Assembly (NCBI GenBank): GCA_965205865.1 | Contig: CBDBHR010000024.1 | Span: forward strand, 155,648-219,647 | DNA length: 64,000 nucleotides | Direction of reading: 5' to 3' | Source: a bacterium | GTDB lineage: Bacteria > SAR324 > NAC60-12 | Part shown: piece by piece, positions 2,152 to 31,378 of the stretch | Layout of the letters: each line of letters starts with the position of its first letter | How positions within the stretch are numbered: the first letter of the stretch is position 1 | Program-made: the position numbers and the translations under genes | Notes under the pieces: model-generated | Told to the model about the DNA's origin: nothing | Databases searched by the model: none | The model's input: the letters and a program-made list of their open reading frames with translations, nothing else

Positions 2152-4086
2152 CTATTTTTTGAAGAACCATTGTTCGGGTAACTGGTATCTGAGACAGCTT
2201 GTATCATAGGTATCCGTAAAAGCAGTCTCACTCATATTACGCAAGTTAGCCGCTGCTACGCCAGGTTTCTTACTATTTCTTATAGTCCCTATTCCCCAAA
2301 CATACTCGGCTTGTAGCTCCCCAATCTGCCTAATCAAATCCTTCTGTTCCTCTTTGTTTCCGGAAGCCCACAATTGTGCTTGTAAGGAGTAAAGCTTTTT
2401 TACCTCCGCGGGCGGCTCTTCACCGCTTTTACCAAGAGATGTTTTCCACTGTTGCCACTTGGGAGCGAACCATTCAGAATTAAACATGTGTTGACCAGAG
2501 GCCTTCACTATGGGAGCTATTCCTATGGCGCAACCGTTTATGAACACACCTACCTCATGCTTTGCAGAGTCTTTCAATTTCCAGACAGCTGCCCTATCCA
2601 TTTGCTTGACAGTGGCTTTAACACCGACTTCTCCCCAGTAGAGACTTGTCAACTCACTGGTCTCAATCCAGGCTATTTCACCCCCGGATGTAACGGTAAT
2701 TGATACGGTCAAAGTTTTGCCATCAGGTCGGAGCCGGAAACCTTCTCCATCCCGCTTATCCAATCCCATCTCATCCAGAAGTCTGTTGGCTTCTTTTGGA
2801 TCATAACTTGCGTACGCTTTGGCAAATCTTTCTTCATAACCCGGGGCATCGCGTCCGAATGTCAATTGAGCAGGATCGCCTGTCCCATAGTTTACTTTCA
2901 CATTAACCTCTTGGCGGTTGATAGCCAAAGAGAGAGCTCGTCGGAACCGGACATCGCGGAAGATATCACGCTTAACCGGATCATCATCATAGTTCAAATT
3001 AAACCAAAAACCGGGATTAGCAGTATAAGCGGTTGTTGGCGTCCAAATACGCAGGTTATGCTTCTTTATGGCCTCAAAATAAAGGGGATAATCCTCCAGC
3101 TTGAACATCCTTTGACCGAAATCAACCTCTCCAGCTATCGCTTTCATACTGTTTAACTCTGGAGTTGTAGCCATAGTCCCTGTCATTTTATCAATATAGG
3201 GGAGTTGGTTGCCTTCCGGGTCTACCTTAAAGTAATAGGGATTTCGCTCCCATAGTACATCTAATTCACCAGGTGCCACCTTTTTGGTGATCCACGCAGT
3301 GACCGTAGGAAGATCCAAATTTCGCTGTTTACCAGAAGTAAACTCCATTTTCGCCCTGATTAGCTGCACCCAGCTGTCAAATCCTGCTGCTTTGGCTACC
3401 TCATTCGCCTTTTTATTGTACTTGAGGTGAAATTGTTTTAGGTAATGTTTGGGCAATATCTGAGACTGCCAAAAGCCAAAACATACCCCGGCTAGAGGGA
3501 GAAGTACATTTGGATTAGGTGCTCCAAAGCGGAAGCGAAATGTATAATCGTCCACCTTCTCTATTTTCGGCAACTCACCACCGGGCGTGACTGTCCACGG
3601 CAGGTTTGAGACACCTCCATGATAAGCCGCGAAAAGATCCTTGCTCCAAACAATATCGTCATAAGTGAATACCATATCATCAGCGGTGAAGGGTGCACCA
3701 TCTGACCATCTCATCCCCTTTCTCAAATAGACGGTCAGAACTTTACGTCCTTCTGAAAACTCCCACTTTTTGGCAACATTTGGCACTATCTCTTCGAAAT
3801 TACGGTCAAAGAAGAACAAATTTTCAAAGTTACTTTCTGTGGGTTCACCCCAATCCAACACAGAAGGCATCATCATCCGCACTGTCCCCCCATACTGTCC
3901 AATTTCCTCATAGACTTCAATAACCAAAGGCTCTTCAGGAAGTCTTTCTTCCAACGGAGGAAGCTCCCCCGCCTTAACCAATTCCTTCAGCATGGGAGCC
4001 TCGTTATACTTTTGCGCCAGTGCTGAAGTCGCTCCCAATAAGCACATTACCCCAGCCAATAGTACCACCATTAATTTCTTATACAT
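2152..4086 (-). CDS. ABC transporter substrate-binding protein, family 5
   Basis: Signal peptide MYKKLMVVLLAG, then EAPML...GELPPLEERLPEEP, LRKGMRWSDGAPFTADD and RFRRALSLAINR. A GGAGA RBS precedes ATG 4086. Confidence 0.93.
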   Translation of the reverse strand: MYKKLMVVLLAGVMCLLGATSALAQKYNEAPMLKELVKAGELPPLEERLPEEPLVIEVYEEIGQYGGTVRMMMPSVLDWGEPTESNFENLFFFDRNFEEIVPNVAKKWEFSEGRKVLTVYLRKGMRWSDGAPFTADDMVFTYDDIVWSKDLFAAYHGGVSNLPWTVTPGGELPKIEKVDDYTFRFRFGAPNPNVLLPLAGVCFGFWQSQILPKHYLKQFHLKYNKKANEVAKAAGFDSWVQLIRAKMEFTSGKQRNLDLPTVTAWITKKVAPGELDVLWERNPYYFKVDPEGNQLPYIDKMTGTMATTPELNSMKAIAGEVDFGQRMFKLEDYPLYFEAIKKHNLRIWTPTTAYTANPGFWFNLNYDDDPVKRDIFRDVRFRRALSLAINRQEVNVKVNYGTGDPAQLTFGRDAPGYEERFAKAYASYDPKEANRLLDEMGLDKRDGEGFRLRPDGKTLTVSITVTSGGEIAWIETSELTSLYWGEVGVKATVKQMDRAAVWKLKDSAKHEVGVFINGCAIGIAPIVKASGQHMFNSEWFAPKWQQWKTSLGKSGEEPPAEVKKLYSLQAQLWASGNKEEQKDLIRQIGELQAEYVWGIGTIRNSKKPGVAAANLRNMSETAFTDTYDTSCLRYQLPEQWFFKK

Positions 4087-4110
4087 CGTTTTTCTCCAAA
4101 ATAAAGTTAT

Positions 4111-4141
4111 AGCTTTTACAAAAGCCGCTTTCGTAAAAGCT
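4111..4141. repeat. Near-perfect 31-bp inverted repeat in the SBP 5' leader
   Basis: AGCTTTTACAAAAGC-C-GCTTTCGTAAAAGCT, one mismatch. Confidence 0.8.
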
Positions 4142-4284
4142 CTCAAAAAGAGTAAAGTGTTAAAAAAAACACTTTTCCGCTATGGAAAGCTCCCTTTTAC
4201 TCCTCTGCAAATCCAGAAAGAAACATCCTTCAAGCCACTAATCTGGCTTTCCCGCATAAAGGTCGCCTGCCGCAAGTCTTTAGC

Positions 4285-4300
4285 TTCAAAAGTCATGCCA
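4285..4300 (-). promoter_or_regulatory. Putative sigma54 (-24/-12) promoter of the ABC operon
   Basis: TGGCATGACTTTTGAA versus consensus TGGCACG-N4-TTGCW. Spacing is correct; the -12 element is GA instead of GC. Confidence 0.6.
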
Positions 4301-4386
4301 TCCGCTCGAAACGCAGGATTGGCGGGGGCTGAGGGGACCTATGGGAAAGGAGGCCGCCGGTTTTGAGGTGATTTTTTGGTAAAATC

Positions 4387-4481
4387 GGGCATTTTTGCCC
4401 TTCTTAAACACAAAAATGATGTATTTTCGGCAGTAATGTTTTGATATTAAACACTAATCTGAAATTCGGGCATATATGCCC
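4387..4481. promoter_or_regulatory. Two palindromic enhancer-like sites plus an IHF-like site
   Basis: GGGCATTTTTGCCC (4387-4400) and GGGCATATATGCCC (4468-4481), both preceded by TC. TATCAAAACATTA (minus strand, 4434-4446) fits WATCAANNNNTTR. Confidence 0.6.
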
Positions 4482-4537
4482 CATTTGATTATATTTGCCT
4501 GAATCAAGCGTTTCGTGGATTTCCGCTTCCAGAAAGA

Positions 4538-4966
4538 CTACAGGCTGTTCAGCAATTCTTGGATTTCATGAATCAATATAGGTAAATTGGGTTGCGCAAA
4601 ACTCATTCCTTCTGCAGGAATCCTATTATGTTTCATATCTGGTGGAATATGCTTGTGATGTGGATGAGTGCTTTGCAAAGTCGAATCATTAGGATGTGGT
4701 TGAGAATCGTACCAGTATAGTTTTTTCTCTTTTTGTCGGATCTCATATCCATATTCGTCAATGACGGCAGGTATACGATGATAAACAATTCGTTCACGGA
4801 TGGCGATCCATACATCTTTTGCAAAATACAGTTCTCCCTCCACACGAGCTAAGGTTGTTCCACGACGGATTAAACGCAAAGTTGAACGTTGGATGACAGG
4901 GAACTGTTCGGTGAGTGTGTATATAAACAGCTCGTAGTCTTTGATGGTACGGAGAGCATTATTCAT
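4538..4966 (-). CDS. DUF6516/TumE-like putative toxin
   Basis: YGYE...YWYDSQPHP...THPHHKH motif. The start overlaps the upstream gene's stop (ATGA). Confidence 0.6.
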   Translation of the reverse strand: MNNALRTIKDYELFIYTLTEQFPVIQRSTLRLIRRGTTLARVEGELYFAKDVWIAIRERIVYHRIPAVIDEYGYEIRQKEKKLYWYDSQPHPNDSTLQSTHPHHKHIPPDMKHNRIPAEGMSFAQPNLPILIHEIQELLNSL

Positions 4967-5232
4967 ACAGAAACCCGAATCAAACCACTCAAAGTCGGCT
5001 TATCACGTTGAATTCGTTGTACTTGGTCACGATAGGTTGCTTGACGCGCTAACCACGTTCGAAAGACGCTGGCCCATTCTCCAAAATCTAAGACCCAATT
5101 TTCATCTTCAGGTTCTTCACCACTGATATAGGCTGCATAGAATATGTCCGAACGAACTCCATACTTTCTTTCAAAATCAAGCAGTTCTTCTTCAAGGGAG
5201 TGAATATCAATCAGAATATCTTCAAGAGTCAT
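4963..5232 (-). CDS. Small acidic protein, putative antitoxin of the DUF6516-like gene
   Basis: LLDFERKYGVRSDIFY...DFGEW pattern, AAGGATGG RBS-like sequence, coupled two-gene layout. Confidence 0.55.
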   Translation of the reverse strand: MTLEDILIDIHSLEEELLDFERKYGVRSDIFYAAYISGEEPEDENWVLDFGEWASVFRTWLARQATYRDQVQRIQRDKPTLSGLIRVSV

Positions 5233-5434
5233 ATAACCATCCTTTAAGTGTGAATAGAGCCTATTACTAAATCGGCGATTAACGCCTTCTTTGAGAGTAA
5301 GCGTACCGGTTTTCTATGAGTTCTCCAAGCCTGTTTCATTGCTGATCTTTCGATGGCATGTCGTTTTCTTCTGCCCGGACGGCGTTCCGCTTCTGCCTCT
5401 GGCCTTCCAGGGGCCCACCAAAACAATCTTCCCT

Positions 5435-8400
5435 TTAGGAGGGTTTGAGATGGTACTGTTTTATTTTTCGATACAACGTTTTAGGATCAACCCCCAGGAG
5501 GGTTGAAACTTTGCCCTGGTGCCAGTCATTATCTTCCAGCACCTTGGTCAAATACAGTTTTTCGAGTCGCTTCATGGTGGCATCCAAGGGTTCATTGGTT
5601 TCACGCTCCTCAATCGAGACCGGTGGTTCTGTTAGGCTGTCATCGATTAAAGAGGTATCGAGGAAGTCGAGTTTCTTGAGCGTCAGGTAGCGATGCATGG
5701 TGTTGATCAGTTCCCTGACGTTTCCCGGCCAATCATAGGAGGTCAGAGCTTCCATGACACGGATGGTGATTTTTGGCAGGTTATTTGAGGAAGGGTGGTT
5801 TTGCATAAAATGCTCGATCAAAAGGGGGATATCCTCTTTACGTTTCCTGAGAGGCGGCAAGTGAATGGGGATAATGTGGATGCGGTAGAAGAAATCCTCC
5901 CGTATCAATCCCTTTTTCACCTGTTGTTTTAAATCTTTATTGGTGGCGGCAATGATGCGAAAATCGGAGGTTTCCGCTTTAAGGCCGCCTACTGGCGTGA
6001 ACCCTCCGCCCTCAATAGCACGCAGCAGTTTGGCTTGCAGGTTGGGGCCGATTTCACCCAATTCATCCAGGAAAAGCGTGCCTTTGTCTGCCAAATGGAG
6101 CAGGCCAGGCTTATCCGTGTTGGCTCCGGTAAAGGCCCCTTTTTTGTAGCCGAAAAACTCGCTCTCCAAGAGGGTTTCCGCAACACCACCAGCGTTGACG
6201 GGAACAAAGGGTTTTTCTTTTCTATCACTCATTTCATGGATGGCTTCGGCCACCAGTTCTTTACCCGTCCCTGATTCACCATAGACAATGACGCCAACAT
6301 CGCTAGCCGCCGCCTTTAAGATCAATTCATAAATCTCCTGCATCACGGGGCTTTTGCCGATGATCTTTCCGAACCGATAACGCTCCTTGATGTTGGAGCG
6401 CAGGCGGACATTTTCTTCATGCAGGGCTTCCATCCGGTTTTTCTGCTCCGTTACGTCGGAAAGAATCCCTTCGATGAAGCGCAATGCATCAGTCTCGTCA
6501 TAAACGGGGCGGGCGTGCAGGGATGCCCAGAAGGTGCTGCCGTCTTTACGGAAAAATTCCACCTCAAAATCCGAAACGGGGCGTCGGTGCCGGATGAGAT
6601 CCAGGAACTGATGACGCCGCTCCGGATACACATAAAGCTGGTGCCCGACGTCGGTGATGGATGCCATCAGCTCCTCCGGGGAAGAGTACCCGAAGATTCG
6701 GGCCATCGCTGGATTGGCGCTCAGAAAGCGGCCGTCCTGGCTCGTCCGGTAGATGCCTTCAGTGGCATTTTCAAATATTCCCCGGTATTCCGCTTCGGTT
6801 CGTTTGAGGTTTTCGTGAAGCCTGGCATTTTCCAGAGAAATGGCGATCTGGGAGGTGAGGTGTTTGATCACCTCGAGTCGCCGGGGGGTGAAGGCTCCCT
6901 CAACCAGGTTATTTTCCAGGTAAATGATTCCGGTCAAGGCGGACTGATGAGTGATCGGCGCGCACAGGATGGATTTGATGCGCTCCCGTTTAATATAGTC
7001 ATCCTCGGCAAACCGTTCTTCCCGGGAGGCGTTGTCCAAAACCAGGTGTTCCCGGGTTTGTTTCACCCAGGAGATGACCGAGAGGGAGAGGGAGAAAGCC
7101 TTTTCCACAGGCAGGGAAAGCGGCAGGAAACATTCGACCTGCTCGGCGCTCCCGCGGGCAGCGATGAGAGACTGACCTTCGGTTTCCAGAAGCAGGGTTG
7201 CTGTCTGGGCCCCGGCATTTTCCATGAGAATGCGGAGCAGGATCACCAGCAGCGGTTCCAACTCGAGGGTTCCGGAGATAGCCTCCGAGGCTTTGAGCAT
7301 CGTCGCCAGGTCCAGGTTGGCCGAAGGAGGCGCCACTTCTATGTGATCATCGGCAATCAACCCAGGATATCGAGACTTCAGATGCGCGACCTTCCGTTTT
7401 GCCCCCCAGGCTTCGTACTGCTCCATTGCTGCGCGCAGGTAAGACCTGGCGGCGTCGTTCTGCCCCTGGTTGAGCAAGTACCTGGCTGCCAGTTCATTGG
7501 CCAGGGCTTCCTCGTGGATATATTCGCTCTCTCCGGCCAAAGCGATGGCCTGGTCATAGTGGTACATAATGGTATCGGGTTCACCATCCAAAACCCGCAG
7601 CCGCTCGGCTTCCACCAGGTGATGCTTATGCAAATAATTGGGCGGGGCACTGCGCGCCAGTTTCTCCAATGTATCCTGATTGTCATGAACCCGGGTGAGG
7701 GTCTCCTCCTTTTCCCCCTCGCTCCCCTGGTCGCAAACTGCCAGGAGAGCGAGGGACAGGTAGCAGTTGGCCAAGGGATCAACAAGGGCATCCTTGTAGG
7801 TTTTCATCAGGTTGATCATTTCAAAAACCGTCTCACGGGCTGCTTCGTATTCTTCGAACAGGGTTTGCAGCACCAGCTTTTGGTAATTAAAACTGCTCTG
7901 TTCATGATAGACGAACTCTGCACCCGTCACCCTGTGGAATTGATCCATGATGCCGCTCGACAGGCTCGAAGGTTCCTCCATCAGAATCGTGACCGCCTTC
8001 GTCAGCATTTCGACTTGGGGAGACCCGATAATATAATCGATCTTCTCGAGGGCAAGCTTCAACGTCGACAATTCCCCTTTCAGCCAATTCAGCTCCTTCC
8101 CGCACATAAACGCTATACGACACCTTGCGACGGCGCTAATACCGGCATTGTAGAAATCTCCCGTCTCGATTCCCATCTTATGAGCTTCCAGCAAGGGCTC
8201 CAATGACGCCGATAGCGGCTCCCTGTAGAACCGGATCGAGAGGTTGAAAACCCTGGAAACTCTACAGTTTATTTTCTTCAGAGCAAGCGCTTCCATGAGC
8301 TGCATGCCCAGACGACCGAGTTCATAACCAAATTCAAAATCCTGCATAAACCTGCAATAGTTTAATCCAAGGAGACAATAGAATTCGGGTGAATATTCCG

Positions 8401-11400
8401 GATGAAAATGATTGAGCAGCAAAGAGATACGTTTTAATGCGATAGGCTGCCAAAGACCGTCATCCAAAGTAACCCCAGCCTCTCCATATGCCGTATGGAG
8501 CCTATATAGGATAGGGACAAGGATCTCGGCATGCGGTTGGGTGAGCGGCTCAAAGCGCATCACTTCTTCGACGCTTTTACCGGCCAGGCTGGATTTGATT
8601 TGAACGAGGGTCTGCTGCCACTGGTCTAAAGACAAATGGGTGAGATTACACCCCAATTTCTCCAGAATTTCCTCGCCCGTTTCCATGGCCTTCTTTAATT
8701 CACCCCGGGTGGTGTACGCCTTGATCCGGCATCGATAAACGTTGGCCTGGTCCAGGTCCTCTCGGGTGTTGTCTTTTACGGCACCCGCCAGCTTCTCCAT
8801 CAACTCGAAGCGGCCGCAGAGCGATGACATCTCCGTGGCCTCCTCATGCAGGGATAAGGTTAAGGGGTAATGCCGTTTCCAGGCGGCGGCTCCTGAAAGC
8901 TCCAGACCTATGGTAAAATATTCCAGGGCCTGTTCAAAAGCCGAAGCCGCTCTGGCCTGACGACCGGCTTCCAGGTTCAGTTCTGCCAGATGCAATCGTT
9001 CTTTCCATTTATCCTTCACCCTCCGGGCCAGGTTGAGATGGTGAACGATGTCAAAAAGCAGAGCGTCACTTTCCTCCGGAGCGTATTGCTTGAGCAGGGT
9101 CTGACCGATTCGAAGATGGACCGGCTTTCTCTCCTTTTGCGCAATGAGGGCATAGGCAGCCTGCTGCACCCGGTCATGCAGGAATTTATAGCCGCCGCCC
9201 TCCGCGGTCGATTCGGCGGTCGGATCATCCGGCTGCGGGACCTGGGAAAAACCGAGGATCAACCCGTTTTCAAGGGCCGGCAACAGGTTCTCATAGATCT
9301 CCCCGCTTCCAGCTCCGCTGATCAACTCCAAGGATTCCAGGTCAAAGGTATTGCCGATGCAGGCCGCCAGGCTCAAAAGTCGCCTGGTTTCAGAGGAAAA
9401 CCGATGGAGCCGGTCAATCAGCAACTCCACCACATTCTCGGTCACCGCCAGGAACTCGATGGCAGCCAGCTCCCAGGTCCATCGTTTTTCCTCAGGGGAG
9501 TAACCGATCAGATCCTTCTCGGAGAGTACGGTCAAGAACTGACTCACAAAGAAGGGATTACCGCCGGTTTTTCGCTCCAGGGCCTCTGCCAGCGGGTTTG
9601 CCTCCTCAGGACGGCAGTGGCAGGTATGGACGAGCAGTTGTGAAATGTGATCCCGGTTCAGGGGCTTTAAGGGGATCGTTTTGGCAGGCAGGCCTGATTT
9701 TTTGATCACCTCACTACTGATCATCAGCCGATGATCGGCCTCCACCTCGTTGTCGCGATAGGCCCCCAGGAAAAGCAGAGGTTTCCTCTCCGGATCCTGA
9801 GCGATCTGTTCCACCAGCTTGAGAGTATCAGCGTCCACCCACTGCAAGTCGTCCAGAAAAATAACCAGGGGATGGGTCTTTTCACAGAAAAGGTCGATGA
9901 ACTCCAATAAAACGGCAGTGAAGCGGTTGCGGGACTCCAGCGCTCCCATTTCCGGCAGCGGGGGTTGCGGGCCGATCATCAGCTCCAGTTCCGGGATCAC
10001 CCGGGTCACCAGTTGTCCGTTGGGTCCCAGCGCTGCCCGTATCCTGCTTTTCCAACGCTCCATTCCGGATTTGTTTGCGACCGATACCTCCCGGATGAGT
10101 CCCCGCAGCGCCTGGATCAGGGCGCTGTAGGGGATATTATGCCGGAGCTGGTCAAACTTGCCGGAGATGAAGAAGCCGTTTTTTTGGGCAATGGACCTGT
10201 GAATTTCACCGACCAGGGCGGTTTTACCGACACCGGCGGTTCCCGAGACCAGCACCATCTCGGTCGCTCCCTGGCTGACTCGCTCCAGGGCGGCCTCCAG
10301 AGCAGTGATTTCATCCTCCCGACCGTAAAGCCCCGGGGCGATCTGCAGTTCTTTAGGCATATCATGGCGGCCCAGGGGAAAGTCGGACAGGCTCCCCTGG
10401 TTTTCCAGCTGCTCCACACATGCCAGGAGATCGGCTGAAAGGCCCGAATGACTCTGGTAGCGCGCCTCGGCACGCTTGGCCATCAGTTTCATCACCAGGC
10501 GGGAAAGGGTTTTGGGCACCTGCGGCGTTATCTGCTCCAGGGGTACAGGCTGCCGGGCAATGTGAGCGTGGATGATTTCCATGGCCTCCCGGGAGTGGAA
10601 AGGCACTCTCCCGCTGAAAAGTTCGTAAAGGGTGACCCCCAGGGAATAAAAATCACTGCGATAATCGAGGGGGCGGTTCATCCGGCCGCTCTGCTCGGTG
10701 GAGATATAGGGCAGGGTTTCCCCGGTCAGCTGGGGACTCAAGGTCGTCGAATTTTCCCGGGGAAGCCGGGTGGCCAGGCCGAAGCCGCTCAGTTTGACCG
10801 TTCCCGATGCCGGATCGACAAAAATATTGAATGGGTTGATCATTTTATGAAGAATACCCTGCCGGTGCACTTCTTCCAGGGTGCCGGTCAGTGAAACCGC
10901 TACCTTGAGGGAGTCCGGCAGGTCGAGCCGGGAGGCGTCCATCAGCTTTCTTAAAGGGAGCCCTTCGGTGTTTTCCAGGATCAACGCCCATCCCTTCTCA
11001 TACTGCGCCAGTTCCTCTGACCTGAGGACCCCATCGATCTCGAGATCCCGAGTGATCTCATGCTCGTGCCGTATTTCCGCCTGTTCCTGCGCGCTCTGCT
11101 CAGAGGAAGCCGGTCCCTTGATCAGGACCAAAAGCCCATCCCTTAGCCGCCTGCCTCGCCAGAGCCGGGTCCGGCTGCTTTCAAGAATGACCTCCTCCAG
11201 TGAATATCCCGGTATATCCGGCTTTTTTCTGGCGGGAATCGTCTGCTCTAATAGCGGAAACAGCTCTTTTACTGGCCTGGGATGCGTTTCCATTCCCTGT
11301 CCAGTAGAAATTTCTTCCTTTGACCATTGAGAAATTTTGAAGCTTTTCAGCAGATCCCCCAAGAAACCCTGGTTCTTTTCGATTTCGTGGATTTTTCCCA

Positions 11401-11746
11401 GCATTCTCCGGGCGGCATGGTAATTTAATCCGATTTTTTCTGATAATTGTTGAGCCGTCGTCTCCCCATTGCATGCAGCCACATAATAAATCCCCCAAAA
11501 CCAGTAACGCAGCGGAGTCCGAGTCCGGTGCATCAGAGTTCCCGCGATTAGCGAAGTCTGGTGTTTACAATTTCTGCATTGCAGTATTTGACGTTTTTTC
11601 AGGGCATCGTATCGGTGACTACCGCAGACTGAGCACACATAACCGGCTGGCCAACGGAGGTGGGAGAGGTGATTGCGGCAGACTTCATCGTTCGAAAAAA
11701 GCTTTTGGATCTCATGAAAGGAATGGGCTTGAGTTGTTTCATCCAT
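5435..11746 (-). CDS. Giant sigma54-dependent activator: IS1595-type Zn ribbon/HTH, pseudokinase, P-loop NTPase, helical repeats, GAF, PAS, sigma54 AAA+, Fis HTH
   Basis: Motifs in order: [25 protein letters not shown] and [12 protein letters not shown] and [69 protein letters not shown]. The likely start is ATG 11746 after GGAG. Confidence 0.92.
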
Positions 11747-11845
11747 TTTGCGCTCCCACATCTGAGATGGTTTAATGAACACTCAGGGATGAGCTTGATC
11801 TGTTTCATCCACTTGGCGCTTCCACATCTAAGATGGTTTAATGAA
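11720..11845. repeat. Diverged 66-bp-period tandem duplication spanning the activator start
   Basis: TGTTTCATCCATTTTGCGCTCCCACATCTGAGATGGTTTAATGAA (11735-11779) versus TGTTTCATCCACTTGGCGCTTCCACATCTAAGATGGTTTAATGAA (11801-11845). Confidence 0.9.
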
Positions 11846-18626: not shown

Positions 18627-21185
18627 TCATGGGAGGGCATTCTCCAGGATTTCAGCATCCAGACGAGAACGAAAATCTACCAGGTTCTTCTCGCGAAGCT
18701 TTTTAGAAAAACCCGGATAGTCTCGTGGTGTCAGCATATTGAATTGATAGGACACGTCTTTTCCTGAATCACTCAACCAATTGTTCAACCGCTCAAAATG
18801 TGCGGTTGCGTATTCATATTTTTTGACGTTTTCTTGTGAGGGCTCACCAATTTCCGAATCATCCTTGATTTCAACAACAAAAACCCATTTACCTTGTTTT
18901 ATAAAAAAATCAGGACTGAACATACCGCGCTTGATATGTGGCGCCCCTTTTTTCCTGCTCGTCGTCTTGGAGCAGGCATACTCAATGAAATAAAAACCCA
19001 TCGCCGTATTTTTTATCCAGCAATCAATGGTTTTAGCATTTTTGGAGTTACATAATTTCCGTACAAACCGACGCTCCGGATTGCTATCGGCGATTACAAG
19101 ATTTACAGAGGTCTTGAAATCATAGTCATTGGAGATGGAGACAGTATTTGCGGTATATTCGCCGTCTTGATCCGTTAATTCATGAAAGAAATCCTTCTGT
19201 TCCCGAGGTAGATATGATTCACAGTCAGAACGAGAAAATACGAATTTATCTCTACGTAACTCAGCAGCACTGCAACTGTCCTTTTGACGATCTTTTGTGC
19301 TCATTTTAACCAGAGCTTTTGCCGAAGTATCATAAGACACTCGCCGAGACACCCTGCGTCGCAATATCCCAAGCGATTGAAGAAATTTTTGTCGCGCCTC
19401 TTCCGGTATTCTATCCTCGTCAATTTGAGCTCGTTTAGCCGATTCTCTCACGACTTTCTCCAACCAGGTTGTCGAATAACGAGCGATATATTGAGTGCGT
19501 TTTTCAGGGTCGTTTTCGGAAGCGGTTTCCCTGTCTACCGCTTCCAAAGCTTGGTGCATATGTCCGGCGATTGCCGTCGCTGTAAAGGTCGTGTGCTTGA
19601 TCGTTAACGTCTCTTCTCTTCTCTTGCCTCCAACCCTGTCGAATTGTATTTGCGCCGGTTCTTCTGCCAAGAGTGAAGGTAATTCAATATGACCACGCTC
19701 GAACAGGTTGAACTCATCACTCGTTTTCACATCCGTAGAGGATTTATTTTTTTCATAGTCCAGGTTGTATAATTCAAAGTGATAATCGGACTGGGGTAAA
19801 GCCAACGATGAGACACGTTTTTCTATTTCTAAAATTTTATCGACCAGACTTTTAATGCGAGGCGCCCAAGCGTCATGATTGAAAACGGTAACGACGGGCG
19901 GCGGCCCTTTCCATTGTTCGGGAATTCTCAAACCTCGCCCGAGAACCTGGGCGATAAGGAGTTTGCTGTTAAAGGCGCGTTCCTCATGCGGAATGATTTG
20001 GAATTCGTTCTTGACGTCCCAGCCCTCGGTCAACATGGAAACTGATATAATCCACTCCGCTTTGGATTGTGAACTGTCCACTGTTCTCAACCGCGCCACA
20101 TTCAGTTGGTGTTTATTGGATGAAGTAACAGCAATGACTTTCTCTTTTGCTTGCTTTGCCGAAATTTTTTCCTTCTCCTGTAAATAAGCCCTTAGTTCAT
20201 CCGCAACGTCGTCGCACTTGTTGATGGTATTGGTAACGATAATGGTCAATGGGCGAATTCCTTGCTTGCTCAAATTTCTGAGACCGTTAATATGTCTCTG
20301 GTATATCAACTGCCATTTCTCATCAGGGTCATGCAATGTCGGAGCTTCTGCAACGTATTCAACATCTTTTACCTTGCGTTCCTCTATCGCCTGACGCAGT
20401 GAATAGCGGTAGACCACATCTGCAAAATATTGATTTTTATGGTAGCAAGTGCCGGAAACCCCGACTATCCGTTTGAATCCAAACTCTTCTTCCATCAAAA
20501 ATTTTTTCCATTTGCGAAGATCACCTGGAGCAGAAGCAACATGATGCGTTTCATCATTGAGAACAAGTGTTCTTTTCCCTTTACCGAGCAAGATGTCCCG
20601 TATTGATGATTTCACGTGCTTCAAAACCGCATGATAGTTCTCTACACAGATGGAACCTTTGACAATTGTCTGCGAAGCGTTAATCACTTGCGGAGAAACA
20701 TACTTGGCATCCATTGGCATTGCAGACTGCAAATCGGCATCTGCGGCAAGAGTTTTGAACTTGTCAGTCAGCCCACGTTCAATCGTATTAGAGGGGCAAA
20801 TGGTTAAAACCTGATCTATCAAATCTTCGGCAAGCAAAATCGCCGCAATACCATAAAGGACGTAACTCTTACCGGTTCCTGTTGCAAGATCGAGGGAACA
20901 GGAAAGCAGTCCGGGAAATTGCAGTTTACTCTCCATAGCCTCCCAGGAACCGTATACCTCTTCCAGCTTCGGATTCTCATTAAAATTTTCACGGGCCAAA
21001 GCCTGCAGATTTTCATACCTGTTCCCCGCCAGAAAACGCAGAGTGGTAAATATCGCTTCTTTCTGGTACTCGCGGTCGGCACAAAGCTCATCCACAAAAG
21101 CATCATATTTGCCTTCATCCCATACGTTAGGGTCGATATGGCCAGACACTTTCAGAACCAGATCTTCATTTCGTATTTTACTCAC
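18627..21185 (-). CDS. res: Type III restriction enzyme Res subunit (SF2 helicase + PD-(D/E)xK nuclease)
   Basis: LATGTGKS, NDETHH, MLTEGWDV, QVLGRGLR, C-terminal PDFFIK..VVEIK. Adjacent to mod. Confidence 0.88.
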   Translation of the reverse strand: MSKIRNEDLVLKVSGHIDPNVWDEGKYDAFVDELCADREYQKEAIFTTLRFLAGNRYENLQALARENFNENPKLEEVYGSWEAMESKLQFPGLLSCSLDLATGTGKSYVLYGIAAILLAEDLIDQVLTICPSNTIERGLTDKFKTLAADADLQSAMPMDAKYVSPQVINASQTIVKGSICVENYHAVLKHVKSSIRDILLGKGKRTLVLNDETHHVASAPGDLRKWKKFLMEEEFGFKRIVGVSGTCYHKNQYFADVVYRYSLRQAIEERKVKDVEYVAEAPTLHDPDEKWQLIYQRHINGLRNLSKQGIRPLTIIVTNTINKCDDVADELRAYLQEKEKISAKQAKEKVIAVTSSNKHQLNVARLRTVDSSQSKAEWIISVSMLTEGWDVKNEFQIIPHEERAFNSKLLIAQVLGRGLRIPEQWKGPPPVVTVFNHDAWAPRIKSLVDKILEIEKRVSSLALPQSDYHFELYNLDYEKNKSSTDVKTSDEFNLFERGHIELPSLLAEEPAQIQFDRVGGKRREETLTIKHTTFTATAIAGHMHQALEAVDRETASENDPEKRTQYIARYSTTWLEKVVRESAKRAQIDEDRIPEEARQKFLQSLGILRRRVSRRVSYDTSAKALVKMSTKDRQKDSCSAAELRRDKFVFSRSDCESYLPREQKDFFHELTDQDGEYTANTVSISNDYDFKTSVNLVIADSNPERRFVRKLCNSKNAKTIDCWIKNTAMGFYFIEYACSKTTSRKKGAPHIKRGMFSPDFFIKQGKWVFVVEIKDDSEIGEPSQENVKKYEYATAHFERLNNWLSDSGKDVSYQFNMLTPRDYPGFSKKLREKNLVDFRSRLDAEILENALP

Positions 21186-21215
21186 AACCTATTCCTCATT
21201 GCTTTGCTTCCCTTT

Positions 21216-23279
21216 TTATAACGTAATACCGTTCTTGAAGCTTTTAACATTAATCAACTCTCGCGCTTCATTGCCGTAAACGTCAATAAAAATCGCCATG
21301 ACATTCTCACCGAGATTTTCATAAGAGAAAAATACCGTCCAACCTTCCTTGCTCAAGTCATCCGCATAAAACACCTCATCAAACTCAAAAATTCCTTTGG
21401 CAGATTCATAATCATAATCCAGCATCAGCATTGAAAGGGTTTCCCTGTTGTCGTCCATCCTCATCGCTTGAGGAATGCGGGCATTGCTCTTAAAGGTTTC
21501 AATCTTTATAAAGGCCTTGTCAATCGAATCAACTTCCTGTTTTTTCACCCCAACCGAATATTTGAGCTTGGGACGACGGTTGAAATCAAACCCGACTGCC
21601 TCCACGGTTTCATTTACCGACATTTCGTTTTCGGGCTGGCGCAACGCGGTGAAGTCCCGTCGATGCAGTTCATTGATGATTGAATACGGAATGCGCAATG
21701 CATAATAACGCACACCATCGTAGTCAATGTAATCCTGGAAAAAACCAAAGGACATGGCAGGCGCAATCAGAAACATATGCCTGCCGACCATCCTTCCAAT
21801 GTTTGAATGAAGTTCCTGAATCGTCTCCTCTGTAATCAGTTCATTTTTCACATTCTGCGGTTCATAAACCAAAACGCTTTTGCCTCTCAGTTTTCCATCC
21901 ATCCGTATGCCGCCGATTTCATGGATTTCTTCGCGGCACTGAAATAGTAGTAGTACAAAACGCCGCCAATTCTCGCGCGGCTCTTCACCCAGTTTCTCCA
22001 ATTCATAAAGTCCGGCATTGAAAAAAGCAAACGTTTTGGGCTGCAAAACCGGCCCTTTATTTCCGATCTCCTTTCGCAGATTGAGCATTCTTTTTTGGGT
22101 TGTGTAAATCGCCAGCTTACCGCAATCACAACCAATCCAACGACGCCCGATTTTTTCGGCGACAGCTATGGTAGTGCCCGAACCGAGAAAAAAGTCGGCA
22201 ATAATATCACCATTATCGGACGATGTTTTTAGGATGCGTTCAAGAAGGGCTTCGGGTTTTTGGGTGGGATAGTCGAGTGATTGGTTGTCTCCTGATGATA
22301 AATAGTTAATGTCAGTCCAATTATCTCCGAGAGGAGACCCTTGGTATTCATCTGCGTAAATTTTATATCGGGGCCGCTCTTTTCCCGTCCAATGGATAAG
22401 ATGTGGATTTAATTTGAGACGATTATTAAAAGTTTCCTGCGTCCATCTCCAACCTACAGAGGAGACCACCGTTTTGCCTTTGATTGTCCGCGGTTCACCT
22501 CTGCTACTGTCGTTAGAGGACTGTTCCAGAGCTACATGCTGATAACGTCGTCCCGTTTCTTTTTCTATGTATGGGAATTTCTGTTCTACATCACAAATTC
22601 TACTAAATTGCAGGTTGAAAGTAATTTGCTGTCGGTTCTTGGCATAGATGAATATTGTATCAGTAATAGCATCAAAACCAGATTTGGAAAGACTATGAGG
22701 AGCATATCTTTTCCATGATATATGATTCACAAAGTTCTCTTTCCCAAACACCTCGTCCATCAACACCCGGACATAAGAATTCATCCGCCAATCGAGATGC
22801 ACATAGATGCTTCCGTCATCGGAAAGCAGTTCCCGAATTAAAATCAATCTTTTCCTAAGAAACTCAAGAAACTCGCCTGCGGAAAGTTTGTCCTGATAGG
22901 CCTGCGCTCCGCCTATACCCTGCATCTCTTTTCTAGTGGAAAACGGTGGATCAATATAAACAAGCCTGATGCCGGGCGTCCCATCGGCATTGCACAAATT
23001 GCCTCTTTGCTTTTCTTCCAAAAGCGACTTCATCACCTGCAAATTATCGCCGAATACCAGTTTGTTGTGCCAGCCGTTGCCATTGTTACCGAACCGCCGC
23101 GTTTGCTGGAGTGGTACAGCCATTGTCTCCGCCAGAATTTCCTCTTCCCTCGCCTTGCCGTCATAGACAAGCTCGCACTCCCGCTTTTGATTGGGAAAGA
23201 CAACGGATGACCATTCTGATGAAAGCATCTCACCACTCTCAAGAATTTCGATGATTCTTTTCCGCTCTTCTTCTTTCAT
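21216..23279 (-). CDS. mod: Type III R-M DNA methyltransferase (beta class)
   Basis: GDNL, YIDPPF, YPTQKPEALLERI, DFFLGSGTT, plus a long C-terminal extension. Confidence 0.9.
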   Translation of the reverse strand: MKEEERKRIIEILESGEMLSSEWSSVVFPNQKRECELVYDGKAREEEILAETMAVPLQQTRRFGNNGNGWHNKLVFGDNLQVMKSLLEEKQRGNLCNADGTPGIRLVYIDPPFSTRKEMQGIGGAQAYQDKLSAGEFLEFLRKRLILIRELLSDDGSIYVHLDWRMNSYVRVLMDEVFGKENFVNHISWKRYAPHSLSKSGFDAITDTIFIYAKNRQQITFNLQFSRICDVEQKFPYIEKETGRRYQHVALEQSSNDSSRGEPRTIKGKTVVSSVGWRWTQETFNNRLKLNPHLIHWTGKERPRYKIYADEYQGSPLGDNWTDINYLSSGDNQSLDYPTQKPEALLERILKTSSDNGDIIADFFLGSGTTIAVAEKIGRRWIGCDCGKLAIYTTQKRMLNLRKEIGNKGPVLQPKTFAFFNAGLYELEKLGEEPRENWRRFVLLLFQCREEIHEIGGIRMDGKLRGKSVLVYEPQNVKNELITEETIQELHSNIGRMVGRHMFLIAPAMSFGFFQDYIDYDGVRYYALRIPYSIINELHRRDFTALRQPENEMSVNETVEAVGFDFNRRPKLKYSVGVKKQEVDSIDKAFIKIETFKSNARIPQAMRMDDNRETLSMLMLDYDYESAKGIFEFDEVFYADDLSKEGWTVFFSYENLGENVMAIFIDVYGNEARELINVKSFKNGITL

Positions 23280-31061: not shown

Positions 31062-31378
31062 CTTGATCTCGTGATTGAAGAGAGGCTGTTAACAAATTCG
31101 AATTGAAATGCGCCAATGATACATTTGAAATTTTTTCAGTTAAAAAAATGAAGGAACTTGCTATTTTCAAGAGCAAGATATGTGCCGCACAAAAAATTTG
31201 TTTGTAGTAAATCATGATGTTATAGTTTCGGCAATAATTCTAATTTCAACGCACTTCCTTGCAGAAAGTTCCCTGACGTATTCCAGCGTGTAAATAAAAA
31301 TATTCGGGGTCGTTGCGCAACTATTGAATTTTTGTCAACAGTATAAAAAATGGACCCTGCTTACAGGAGAAGGTCAAG

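Follow-up and report, generated by a model that had tools for sequence, protein, structure and literature searches.

A putative giant sigma-54 activator with a transposase-derived head belongs to a multicopy family in a SAR324 bacterium

Introduction

A 64,000-nucleotide stretch of a SAR324 genome (henceforth the window) contains one very long gene that joins the DNA-binding part of an IS1595-type transposase to the sensors and motor of a sigma-54 activator, which raises the question of what a regulator of this kind would do with a second potential DNA-binding end. The answer that we favour, and that we consider moderately probable, is that the gene is intact and translated and belongs to a recombining family, specific to this lineage, of giant one-component sigma-54 activators, in which the tail would lead the protein to an importer operon and the head would be a non-catalytic DNA-binding module.

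Architecture of the window protein

The gene reads as a single frame that, in the ORF listing, stays open beyond its ATG up to a GTG at 11782 (ORF 5435..11782, minus strand, 2,115 aa). The ATG at 11746 (MDETT...) is preceded 6 nt upstream by a Shine-Dalgarno-like GGGAG, and we consider it the likelier start of the two because one paralogue (L019) has no upstream ATG, only a GTG at the equivalent position. Protein positions below refer to P0001, the window protein, whose numbering is the ATG numbering plus 12.

5435..11746, minus strand: giant sigma-54 activator gene, 2,103 aa from the ATG, single open frame
11372..11746, minus strand: IS1595-transposase-derived head, type A (Zn_ribbon_IS1595, PF12760, P0001 31–75, E 2.4e-10; NF033547, model positions 2–50 of 215; structure model pLDDT 85.4; dN/dS)
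11204..11371, minus strand: linker 1 (ending ...PGY), seen solely behind IS1595 heads
10439..11149, minus strand: predicted pseudokinase domain (Pkinase, PF00069, P0001 212–448, E 9.4e-23, and alignment)
9770..10330, minus strand: AAA_16 / STAND-type P-loop NTPase (PF13191, P0001 485–671, E 2.9e-46)
7283..9769, minus strand: helical region of ~830 aa between NTPase and GAF, with no Pfam family among the matches listed
6833..7261, minus strand: GAF domain (Pfam, P0001 1508–1650, E 1.2e-11)
6446..6790, minus strand: PAS domain (Pfam, P0001 1665–1779, E 2.5e-14)
5624..6364, minus strand: sigma-54 interaction AAA+ domain with GAFTGA, plus AAA lid (Sigma54_activat, PF00158, P0001 1807–1974, E 3.3e-66; AAA_lid_14, PF25601)
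5453..5575, minus strand: HTH_8 (Fis-type) tail, type T2 (PF02954, P0001 2070–2110, E 2.4e-9, and tail clustering)

The ORF listing and Pfam together confirm what the first-pass annotation had read from the letters, namely one ORF that joins an IS1595 head to kinase-like, NTPase, helical, GAF, PAS, sigma-54 AAA+ and HTH domains. The GAFTGA motif, also claimed there as intact, is present: both GAFTGA and LFLDELGE are readable in the translation (GAFTGA loop, Walker motifs), and PF00158 is matched over its full length (1–168 of 168). GAFTGA with Walker A and B are the motif names for sigma-54 activators, as HRD, DFG and the Gly-rich loop are for active kinases. The AAA_16 NTPase has both its Walker A (GTAGVGKT) and its Walker B (LVIFLDD). 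No TPR family is found among the best 25 of the 34 Pfam matches of P0001, and the related protein P0058 has TPR_12. The window protein falls under every NCBIfam equivalog cut-off, the best being NifA (321.8 against 528.85 bits). The genome of the window (G000) carries a sigma-54 gene (rpoN), a 554-aa frame on contig C25 that scores above the cut-off of TIGR02395.

As for the domain described earlier as kinase-like, the fold is that of a kinase (PF00069), but the term calls for a correction. In the alignment HKM replaces HRD, SGFG replaces DFG and the Gly loop (GxGxxG) is missing, features common to the window protein and all paralogues aligned, and the residues indicate that the domain is catalytically dead, i.e. 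a pseudokinase. Headless relatives from other genera differ in this respect: the four sister-genus copies examined begin at the kinase domain and retain HKD and DFG, whereas the window family combines the apparently dead kinase with a sigma-54 output and added heads.

Recurrence of the fusion

Three giant ORFs with a head are present in G000 (2,115, 1,998 and 2,129 aa) with identical domain order, and a closed genome of the same genus (4.26-Mb chromosome) holds 21 full-length paralogues, so the fusion recurs beyond this assembly, and the uniqueness that the first-pass annotation had named as grounds for refutation does not apply. Long proteins bearing a head fell into 42 clusters. A search of 41 genomes (G000 plus 40 relatives) found giant fused ORFs in just the two genomes of genus g1, the remaining matches being frames of 58–388 aa (mostly ~240–390 aa) with identity of at most 44%; 3 of 26 metagenome loci were fused.

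Short public Logan contigs lie over the junction: X1 (181 nt, 0 differences) over 11171–11351, X2 (239 nt, 13 differences) over 11276–11514 and X20, from an RNA library (298 nt, 19 differences), over 11134–11430. Read support, on which the first-pass annotation had made the fusion depend, is therefore partial: contigs from independent runs cover the junction, but none spans the whole stretch. This lack of a single contig or long read across it is what could be said for a mis-assembly, or for a head left untranslated by a start at an internal Met (METHPRP). The fusion is not an assembly artefact, however, as the same junction occurs in three G000 contigs and in the closed chromosome, and translation only from the downstream Met is unlikely given the GGGAG upstream of the ATG and the purifying selection acting on the head (see below). 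We regard the artefactual or untranslated alternative as extremely improbable.

The transposase-derived head

The head consists of two helices, a CxxC..CxxC zinc ribbon (11558–11692) and an HTH bundle, and its PF12760 match exceeds the gathering score. The DDE catalytic part is missing behind it, in agreement with the first-pass annotation: the NCBIfam IS1595 transposase model NF033547 is matched at positions 2–50 only (E 3e-5, under the cut-off), and PF12762 (DDE_Tnp_IS1595) does not appear in the complete Pfam match lists of two sister paralogues. A genuine 302-aa IS1595 transposase of the same genome scores on both PF12760 and PF12762 (2.3e-33). The break in the heads falls right behind the HTH, where transposases run on into the region of the first catalytic Asp. 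Heads are 36–44% identical to IS1595 transposases of ~300 aa and only 25–31% identical to the resident ones, and the four Cys are invariant in all 35 aligned heads and transposases. In a tree of 115 columns, all 18 fused or short heads grouped in a single starred clade (99/96) that excluded the 32 transposases; the zinc-ribbon columns alone did not recover a single origin, yet did not reject it (AU p 0.38).

The structure model of the head (pLDDT 85.4) presents a zinc ribbon and an HTH-like bundle. Fold comparison (VIA-align) gave weak HTH matches, the best (Z 5.7) to MarR-type and homeodomain proteins; Foldseek returned nothing at E <= 0.001, and a sequence search for solved relatives returned none, the best hits being generic zinc ribbons (E 0.033). 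From family knowledge and these weak fold matches we infer that the head binds DNA.

Selection on the heads was estimated from dN/dS means across paralogues that recombine and are not independent. With type A heads (6 paralogues, 15 pairs) the zinc ribbon gave 0.28 and the HTH 0.12, compared with 0.23–0.48 in the remaining protein, and Arm heads (see below) gave 0.25 (12 heads, 66 pairs). By these ratios heads are constrained at least as strongly as the body and are under purifying selection, in contrast to the neutral evolution of the IS part that the first-pass annotation had considered. In the distant fusions P0059 and P0060 the heads are 55–66% identical and the kinase region only 31%. Given that the fusion is recurrent and its IS1595 part conserved as protein (dN/dS, invariant Cys), the term 'domesticated transposase domain' used in the first-pass annotation holds. 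The head has the marks of an exapted recombinase DNA-binding domain: the DNA-binding part kept, catalysis lost, and purifying selection.

Alternative heads and a mosaic family

The IS1595 capture proposed in the first-pass annotation is real, but one event in one gene is too narrow a description, since the same body bears heads of three recombinase classes. Paralogues with 84–90% identical bodies carry either an integrase Arm DNA-binding domain (Arm-DNA-bind_3, E 5.3e-13) or an IS607-type MerR plus resolvase (Pfam MerR and Resolvase), in both cases followed by a basic linker different from linker 1. The resolvase head can be aligned with 3ilx, an IS607-type catalytic domain (E 1.3e-25), and reads 'VCVDS' in place of 'ARVSS', i.e. 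with the catalytic serine replaced. A census of 120 long relatives counted 49 IS1595, 45 Arm and 4 MerR-resolvase heads, 16 proteins without a head and 6 cut or unclear cases. With 16 headless proteins among the 120, and a MerR-resolvase head that stands out of frame in one G000 copy, the body can stay open without a head. In G000 and G001, the second genome screened alongside it for cassettes and heads, Arm and MerR-resolvase heads were found on giant genes or their remnants only.

Between head types, bodies are 80–95% identical (as is the helical region between paralogues) against 32–36% for the first 60 columns; dS of the zinc ribbon is saturated in 24 of 45 pairs and that of the body is 0.2–0.3. 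Trees of body segments conflict, sister pairs with 99–100 support disagreeing between segments. We relied on these segment trees after setting aside a sliding-window analysis of the nearest paralogue, whose signal was indistinguishable from a star tree with noise. The PAS domain is carried by some paralogues and not by others, HTH_8 tails cluster into four types, and heads, PAS and tails are found in numerous combinations, heads and tail types assorting independently. Heads, PAS and the four tail types are shuffled by recombination.

The 5' end of the gene contains a repeat.

11714..11845, minus strand: 66-nt tandem duplication of the 5' end, also in L011, L016 and L025

Each unit holds the promoter-proximal leader, the Shine-Dalgarno stretch and the first codons, and the upstream copy is a short ORF closed by a stop. 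Tandemly duplicated promoter units lie upstream of type-A IS1595 heads and of Arm heads, and every head type is accompanied by a conserved upstream promoter region peculiar to it, in many cases duplicated. A search for dispersed head-cognate sites with the 404-nt upstream region of the window gene found it beside type-A paralogues only, plus one 47-nt piece, a confinement that co-duplication would produce as well.

That each head type travels with its own upstream region could mean that heads are passengers of promoter capture: elements landing upstream would have supplied promoter, leader and start codon, and the peptide would be tolerated without a function. Headless and decoupled forms do occur, and the stacked head remnants of L013 suggest repeated replacement of the 5' end. 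A functionless peptide is nevertheless difficult to reconcile with a constraint at least as strong as that on the body (dN/dS 0.12–0.28; Arm 0.25), with invariant zinc ligands or with the heads of P0059 and P0060, far better conserved than their kinase regions, and we consider this explanation improbable.

Tail types and downstream cassettes

Downstream of the activator gene, the window contains a candidate target operon and its putative control sites.

4538..5232, minus strand: TumE-type toxin gene (4538–4966) and its 89-aa upstream partner (4963–5232) (Pfam)
4467..4482, minus strand: palindrome GGGGCATATATGCCCG, a candidate T2-tail enhancer (UAS) that lies ~180 nt upstream of the -24/-12 motif
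4387..4400, minus strand: second palindrome GGGCAAAAATGCCC, ~100 nt upstream of the -24/-12 motif
4283..4310, minus strand: conserved 28-nt block with a sigma-54-type motif, TGGCAT-N5-TTGAA, at 4285–4300 (conservation)
2152..4146, minus strand: SBP_bac_5 solute-binding protein gene, probable target (Pfam; position relative to the promoter)
929–1927 and 3–875: permease genes after the SBP_bac_5 gene (Pfam)

The toxin pair sits between the activator gene and the candidate enhancer, an arrangement repeated in L020 and L046. In G000 and G001 the T2 28-nt block has nine matches (none for a reversed-pattern control), each downstream of a T2-type paralogue, i.e. all eight full-length paralogues and one broken copy, and six of the nine cassettes contain the 16-nt palindrome at up to 2 mismatches. 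A T3 cassette accompanies 4 of 4 paralogues (it was not found in the G000 assembly) and a T1 cassette 10 of 12. In the T1 and T2 motifs the -12 element is TTGAA and not the usual TTGC. The first ORF behind the motif, in 13 cases examined, was SBP_bac_5 in seven, SBP_bac_1/8 in three, BPD_transp_2 in one and a receiver domain in one (L039, where the cassette precedes this gene instead of an importer gene), and the last had no match.

Consensus searches for sigma-54 promoters added little: 43 matches in the window against 33.3 expected are not above chance, the 89 matches in the whole genome, many of them intragenic, are uninformative alone, and an exact match on contig C6 was discarded as it falls within a coding frame. 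Gene neighbourhood was likewise rejected as a clue to function, the flanks being heterogeneous (toxin-antitoxin, AAA_14/DUF4143, Uma2, transposases).

As every tail type is followed by a cassette peculiar to it, mostly ahead of ABC-importer genes, the tail appears to choose the target; in these comparisons it is the C-terminal HTH_8 type, and not the head, that tracks the apparent target promoter. Tail type and cassette are physically linked, 0.2–4.9 kb apart, and their association could arise by co-inheritance alone. The family probably switches on neighbouring nutrient-uptake genes.

Proposed mechanism and role of the heads

In the mechanism that we favour, the block of pseudokinase, STAND NTPase, helical region, GAF and PAS would sense a signal and gate assembly of the AAA+ ring. 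The T2-type HTH_8 tail would bind the palindromes at 4467–4482 and 4387–4400, and the ring would open the sigma-54 promoter at 4285–4300, turning on the SBP_bac_5/permease importer operon. The IS1595-derived head, catalytically void, would be a sequence-specific DNA binder without a say in the choice of target promoter; it would most likely bind sites that came in with it at the 5' end of its own gene, in the tandemly duplicated promoter-proximal unit, with autoregulation and/or tethering of the protein near its own locus as the result.

A tentative and rather unlikely extension is two-key addressing. Eight paralogues share the T2 tail and their cassettes closely resemble each other; therefore tails alone cannot separate the switches. 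Heads that arrived with their cognate end sequences at the 5' end of each gene might tether each activator in cis to its own locus, head and tail would form a combinatorial address, and shuffling would create new private regulator-importer circuits. If true, bacteria would have their own equivalent of transposase capture, fed by DDE, tyrosine and serine recombinases alike.

Heads could also act as sensors or baits, likened to the integrated decoy of plant NLRs, that recognise the DNA ends or the recombinase of a cognate mobile element, the STAND switch reporting element activity. All three head types are catalytically void element-end-recognition parts of recombinases, mounted on a STAND-type NTPase, in a very repeat-rich genome (544 kb in 18-mers of at least 8 copies) where toxin-antitoxin, transposase and restriction genes surround the paralogues. 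The apparent outputs, however, are nutrient importers and not defence genes, G000 and G001 yielded no integrase or IS607 transposase cognate to the Arm and MerR-resolvase heads at E <= 0.001, and the resident IS1595 transposases are distant from the heads (25–31% identity). This role, too, we judge improbable.

Enhancer-binding proteins usually have a regulatory N-terminal domain, and the analysis brought no DNA site of the head to light, both of which would suit a protein-protein module that tunes oligomerisation of the switch by dimerisation or by docking on the pseudokinase, with no DNA binding. Three structurally unrelated heads at the same position have DNA recognition in common, not a shared protein partner, and we give this alternative only a slim chance.

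Relationship to known systems

With bacterial enhancer-binding proteins of the NtrC/NifA/NorR type the window protein shares the AAA+ domain with GAFTGA, the C-terminal Fis-type HTH and GAF/PAS before the AAA+, as well as a candidate control region beside the regulator gene, in which a pair of palindromes precedes a -24/-12 motif by ~100 and ~180 nt. It is about four times larger, adding the recombinase-derived head, pseudokinase, STAND NTPase and ~830-aa helical region, and its family amounts to 21 paralogues in one 4.26-Mb genome. In AfsR/SARP-type and MalT/LAL-type STAND regulators, too, a P-loop NTPase and a helical sensor control a DNA-binding output in the same chain; these have a single DNA-binding domain and act on sigma-70 RNA polymerase, whereas the window protein combines a sigma-54 AAA+ motor with two putative DNA-binding ends. 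IS1595-family transposases share the zinc ribbon and HTH with the head, DDE_Tnp_IS1595 being theirs only.

Transposase capture by host regulators has been described in eukaryotes. Vertebrate host-transposase fusion genes (bioRxiv 10.1101/2020.05.07.082677) likewise keep the DNA-binding part without the catalytic part, joined to a host regulator, with recurrent capture, and multicopy F-box genes (PMC12062965) offer another capture of a transposase HTH into a multicopy family. Set against these accounts, the window family is bacterial, its heads appear to have been acquired by 5'-end recombination rather than exon shuffling and derive from DDE, tyrosine and serine recombinases, and the host protein already has a DNA-binding tail. 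The literature searched held no account of a recombinase-headed giant sigma-54 activator, which agrees with the first-pass annotation, where the architecture was not recognised as described; the available part of the main text of an eLife 2020 paper on NTP-dependent conflict systems contains no sigma-54, transposase or integrase. New here are the other recombinase heads on the same bodies, the shuffled heads, PAS and tails, and the tail-type-specific cassettes.

If our reading is true, the capture of mobile-element DNA-binding domains by host regulators, well documented in vertebrates, extends to bacteria, and there it happened repeatedly, with three unrelated classes of recombinase supplying the same position of a single protein family. 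It would also represent an extreme expansion of regulators (21 genes of ~6 kb that fill ~3% of the 4.26-Mb genome), with apparently one gene for each nutrient-uptake cassette, and the family's interchangeable heads, sensors and tails would make a natural system for studying cross-talk among paralogous sigma-54 circuits. The tail-type/palindrome pairs (T1, T2, T3) would be testable and the sites of the heads mappable in vitro without culture.

The body also resembles multidomain sensors of the Pkinase-AAA_16-helical-GAF(-PAS) kind, whose output is a histidine kinase or another domain, such as P0278, and the headless sister-genus giants, all of which have the same core order from kinase fold to GAF. 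These relatives are 34–45% identical in the kinase/NTPase part and multi-copy per genome in related genera. P0278 itself is named by its source 'PAS domain S-box-containing protein', with a HisKA/HATPase/receiver set listed.

A sigma-54 activator with a transposase-derived N-terminus

The ORF listing gives a single, uninterrupted frame at 5435..11782 (-). Counted from its GTG it has 2,115 codons; the ATG at 11746, with GGGAG upstream at the right spacing, gives 2,103.

Pfam domains of the window protein (residues of the 2,115-aa translation)
31-75, Zn_ribbon_IS1595, E 2.4e-10
212-448, Pkinase, E 9.4e-23
485-671, AAA_16, E 2.9e-46
1508-1650, GAF, E 1.2e-11
1665-1779, PAS, E 2.5e-14
1807-1974, Sigma54_activat, E 3.3e-66
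1979-2053, AAA_lid_14, E 7.6e-19
2070-2110, HTH_8, E 2.4e-9

GAFTGA is legible in the translation, as are the Walker motifs of the two ATPases. The catalytic part of the transposase is absent, the NCBIfam IS1595 model aligning over the first 50 of its 215 positions only; the genome's own IS1595 transposase (302 aa) scores on the ribbon and DDE models alike. Lacking a DDE domain, the window protein is not a transposase. Since ORF, Pfam domains, motifs and missing DDE part agree, the first-pass annotation was right in describing, at 5435..11746, an uninterrupted ORF whose IS1595-type N-terminus has lost its DDE part and is joined to P-loop NTPase, GAF, PAS, sigma-54 AAA+ (with GAFTGA) and Fis-HTH domains. 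Its "kinase-like" domain does match Pkinase, but the catalytic motifs are lost (HKM replaces HRD, SGFG replaces DFG and the glycine loop is absent in translation and alignment), hence it is a pseudokinase and no active kinase. The window protein has all the protein-sequence hallmarks of enhancer-binding proteins, yet it scores below all NCBIfam equivalog cut-offs.

GC3 changes in steps along the gene, from 0.49–0.51 in the IS1595 head and linker to 0.65–0.71 from kinase to PAS and 0.57–0.58 at the sigma-54/HTH end (genome GC 0.48). Among the other head kinds described below, Arm heads are body-like (0.57–0.69), and the value is 0.50 in the MerR-resolvase head.

Recurrence of the fusion

One rival reading makes the fusion an artefact. 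A search of the window's genome (G000) with residues 1-128 from the ATG found three giant frames with the head (2,115, 1,998 and 2,129 aa; 100, 91 and 66% identity), identical in domain order except that PAS is missing from one. Further matches were a 100-aa fragment, a 163-aa frame, a weaker match and the frame of a true IS1595 transposase, present in at least seven copies (31% identity). Across 41 genomes (G000 and 40 relatives), giant head-bearing frames were confined to two genomes of genus g1, the second being the closed 4.26 Mb chromosome of G001 (OZ242383.1); head matches outside the genus were frames of 58–388 aa, mostly about 240–390 aa, at no more than 44% identity. A protein collection held 42 clusters of long head-bearing proteins (1,459–2,114 aa), and fusions were present at 3 of 26 related loci in JGI metagenomes. 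The fusion is thus no artefact and not unique to this assembly. Short contigs covering the head/linker/kinase junction were found in public runs of four studies, including one RNA library, but no single one of them crosses the whole stretch.

Three database proteins are more distant fusions: P0059 (2,155 aa) has the domain order of the window protein, P0060 joins the head to kinase and AAA_16, and P0058 joins it to TPR, GAF and sigma-54 domains without a kinase. Their heads are 55–66% identical to those of the window family, the kinase region only 31%. A metagenomic protein of 689 aa (P0085) has IS1595 zinc ribbons repeated in tandem, three to four of them, and no further Pfam domain.

Selection, origin and model of the head

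Another rival reading holds the head to be a passenger of promoter capture. The neutrality that had been named as a possibility for the N-terminal module was not seen: among six full-length paralogues with head type A (15 pairs, Nei-Gojobori means), dN/dS was 0.28 in the zinc ribbon and 0.12 in the HTH, with 0.48 in the linker and 0.24–0.41 in the body domains. The four zinc-ribbon cysteines are invariant in all 35 aligned heads and transposases, and by these measures the IS1595 head is under selection. Arm heads are likewise constrained (0.25; 12 heads, 66 pairs). When 52 modules were placed in one tree (115 columns), every one of the 18 heads, fused or short, fell in a single starred clade (99/96), separate from 32 transposase-length relatives; the 63 zinc-ribbon columns alone did not recover this clade, yet did not reject it (AU p 0.38).

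An AlphaFold model of the head (35 sequences, mean pLDDT 85.4) has two helices, a three-stranded ribbon and a helical bundle. Foldseek returned no match at E <= 0.001, and VIA-align reached Z 5.7 at best, to MarR-type, homeodomain and similar HTH proteins. These results are no more than compatible with putative DNA binding; a protein-protein module is the rival reading.

A family with interchangeable heads

Searching proteins and both g1 genomes with the kinase/NTPase part gave 29 family matches in G001, 21 of them frames of 1,889–2,119 aa (~3% of the genome), and four full copies plus one broken in G000, which may be an undercount because that assembly is in 30 contigs. Different N-termini sit on bodies 84–90% identical to the window's. 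Twelve G001 paralogues carry an integrase Arm DNA-binding domain (PF13356, E 5.3e-13); others have an IS607-type MerR HTH, either together with a resolvase domain or by itself. That resolvase domain, in which the active-site stretch ARVSS has become VCVDS, can be aligned with the catalytic domain of ISC1904/IS607 (3ilx, E 1.3e-25). IS1595 heads fall into four types (A–D) that share 32–36% identity over the first 60 columns, against 80–95% for the bodies. Among 120 long relatives, picked by similarity to the window protein, 45 heads were Arm, 49 IS1595, 4 MerR-resolvase, 16 had none and 6 were cut or unclear. Arm and MerR-resolvase heads occur in the two genomes exclusively on giant genes or their remnants.

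Zinc-ribbon dS is saturated in 24 of 45 pairs versus 0.2–0.3 in the body, quick trees of three body segments give sister pairs that conflict at 99–100 support, and head, PAS and tail occur in many combinations; taken together, these comparisons indicate recombination among paralogues. Kinase/NTPase-part matches in five other genera of the family number 1–15 per genome at no more than 45% identity. Since the four such copies examined are headless and retain HKD and DFG, a dead kinase and added heads mark the window's subfamily.

On these grounds the observation stands; its interpretation is supported in part, but was too narrow and has to be widened to a family: the window gene reads as a sigma-54 activator/STAND regulator with recombinase-derived, interchangeable heads. 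The first-pass annotation did not recognise the architecture as described, and searches of open-access full text turned up no sigma-54 activator or STAND protein with an IS1595, Arm or IS607 head. The nearest concepts are vertebrate transposase capture (bioRxiv 10.1101/2020.05.07.082677) and multicopy F-box genes that have captured a transposase HTH (PMC12062965).

A decayed paralogue in G000 (L013, G000:C3:108500-115500, about 2999-6365) has stacked heads: a 100-aa IS1595 type-A fragment is followed ~1.2 kb later by the ORF of a MerR-resolvase head and, after that, by a body broken by one TGA, an arrangement suggesting head replacement by 5'-end additions. In the fourth G000 giant (L039, G000:C23:40500-51500), the MerR-resolvase head ORF (2439-3218) is separate from the body ORF (3083-8905), overlapping it by 136 nt out of frame; L052 of G001 is the same pair fused in frame. 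G000 is also very rich in repeats, with 544 kb (about 11%) in runs of 18-mers with at least 8 copies, including about 50 intervals of 1.7–1.9 kb.

Tail types and downstream cassettes

Clustering 25 full-length paralogues by their last 75 residues yields four tail types, T1–T4 (the window gene is T2), and a conserved, tail type-specific cassette lies downstream on the same strand.

Cassettes of three tail types
T1: palindromes GTC-A/T-rich-GAC, two copies; putative -24/-12 motif TGGCACACTGCTTGAA; 10 of 12 paralogues (not found for the other two within 1.6–2.6 kb of sequence)
T2: palindromes GGGGCATATCTGCCCC (often doubled) and GGGCAAAAATGCCC; putative -24/-12 block TTCGAGCGG.TGGCATGACTTTTGAAGC; 8 of 8 full-length paralogues and one broken
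T3: two palindromes of the GGGGCC-N-GGCCCC kind; putative -24/-12 motif TGGCACCATCCTTGC; 4 of 4 paralogues

The 28-nt T2 block has nine matches in the two genomes (reversed-pattern control, 0), each of which, by locus coordinates, is on the downstream side of a T2 gene at a distance of 0.8–4.9 kb; the 16-nt T2 palindrome (up to 2 mismatches) is in six of the nine cassettes and once elsewhere. At 13 loci the first ORF past the motif was SBP_bac_5 (7), SBP_bac_1/8 (3), an ABC permease (1), a receiver domain (1) or without match (1, cut by the locus end), a count that leaves out two short ORFs, of 92 and 110 aa, and nine loci where sequence ends early or the motif escaped the search pattern. The receiver domain, in place of an importer gene, comes first after the T2 block of L039.

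Candidate T2 cassette in the window
4467-4482 (-), candidate palindrome
4387-4400 (-), candidate palindrome
4285-4300 (-), putative -24/-12 motif, its -12 element reading TTGAA in place of the usual TTGC
2152-4146 (-), SBP_bac_5 gene, two permease genes next

A sigma-54 gene is present in G000. The neighbouring ABC importer is probably the regulated target of the window gene, and the best reading of the protein is a one-component sensor-activator: the N-terminal block, pseudokinase through PAS, would gate the AAA+ ring, the tail would select the enhancer and the importer would be the output. In NorR, GAF is known to repress the AAA+ domain. Linkage of the tail to its cassette means that co-inheritance by itself could account for the association.

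Past the putative T2/T3 promoters, four loci (L016, L053, L017, L020) conserve a leader with a strong Shine-Dalgarno stretch, then a two-codon mini-ORF (ATG GAA TAA), then the solute-binding-protein gene.

Role of the head

Close-copy T2 cassettes (closeness read from three aligned) follow genes whose heads are IS1595-A, IS1595-B, Arm or, out of frame, MerR-resolvase, so that the head, judged from these loci, cannot be the selector of the T2-cassette promoter. In their parent families, the three head kinds all recognise DNA at the left end of the element, directly upstream of the recombinase gene. Each head type is also accompanied by its own conserved upstream region, often tandemly duplicated. 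In the window, as in L011, L016 and L025, a 66-nt unit is duplicated at the 5' end of the gene; its upstream copy keeps the Shine-Dalgarno-like stretch and start, and forms an ORF of ~14 codons with a TGA stop. L011 has an additional 128-nt duplication of the promoter region, and Arm heads are preceded by units of two sizes, about 125 nt and about 70 nt, in which CTATTTGCT-like words recur. Because of the shared left-end recognition and these upstream regions, we favour a head that would bind near its own gene, in autoregulation or cis-tethering; the rival here is a head serving as mobile-element bait.

Features flanking the gene in the window
11714-11845 (-), 5' end of the gene duplicated in tandem (66-nt unit)
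4538-5232 (-), TumE-type toxin and 89-aa partner, between activator gene and candidate cassette, as in L020 and L046
12185-12900 (+), Phd-like/PIN toxin-antitoxin pair upstream of the gene, common to the L011 locus

Other features of the window

An ORF of 413 aa, whose start resembles a signal peptide, lies 126 nt downstream of an intergenic near-consensus -24/-12 motif, CGGCACATATCTTGCT, at 31172-31187 (-); a link from this motif to the giant activator was not found. At 18627-23279 (-), a ResIII/SNF2-like helicase ORF (852 aa) adjoins an N6_N4 DNA methylase ORF (687 aa); the two resemble a restriction-modification pair of type III-like kind.
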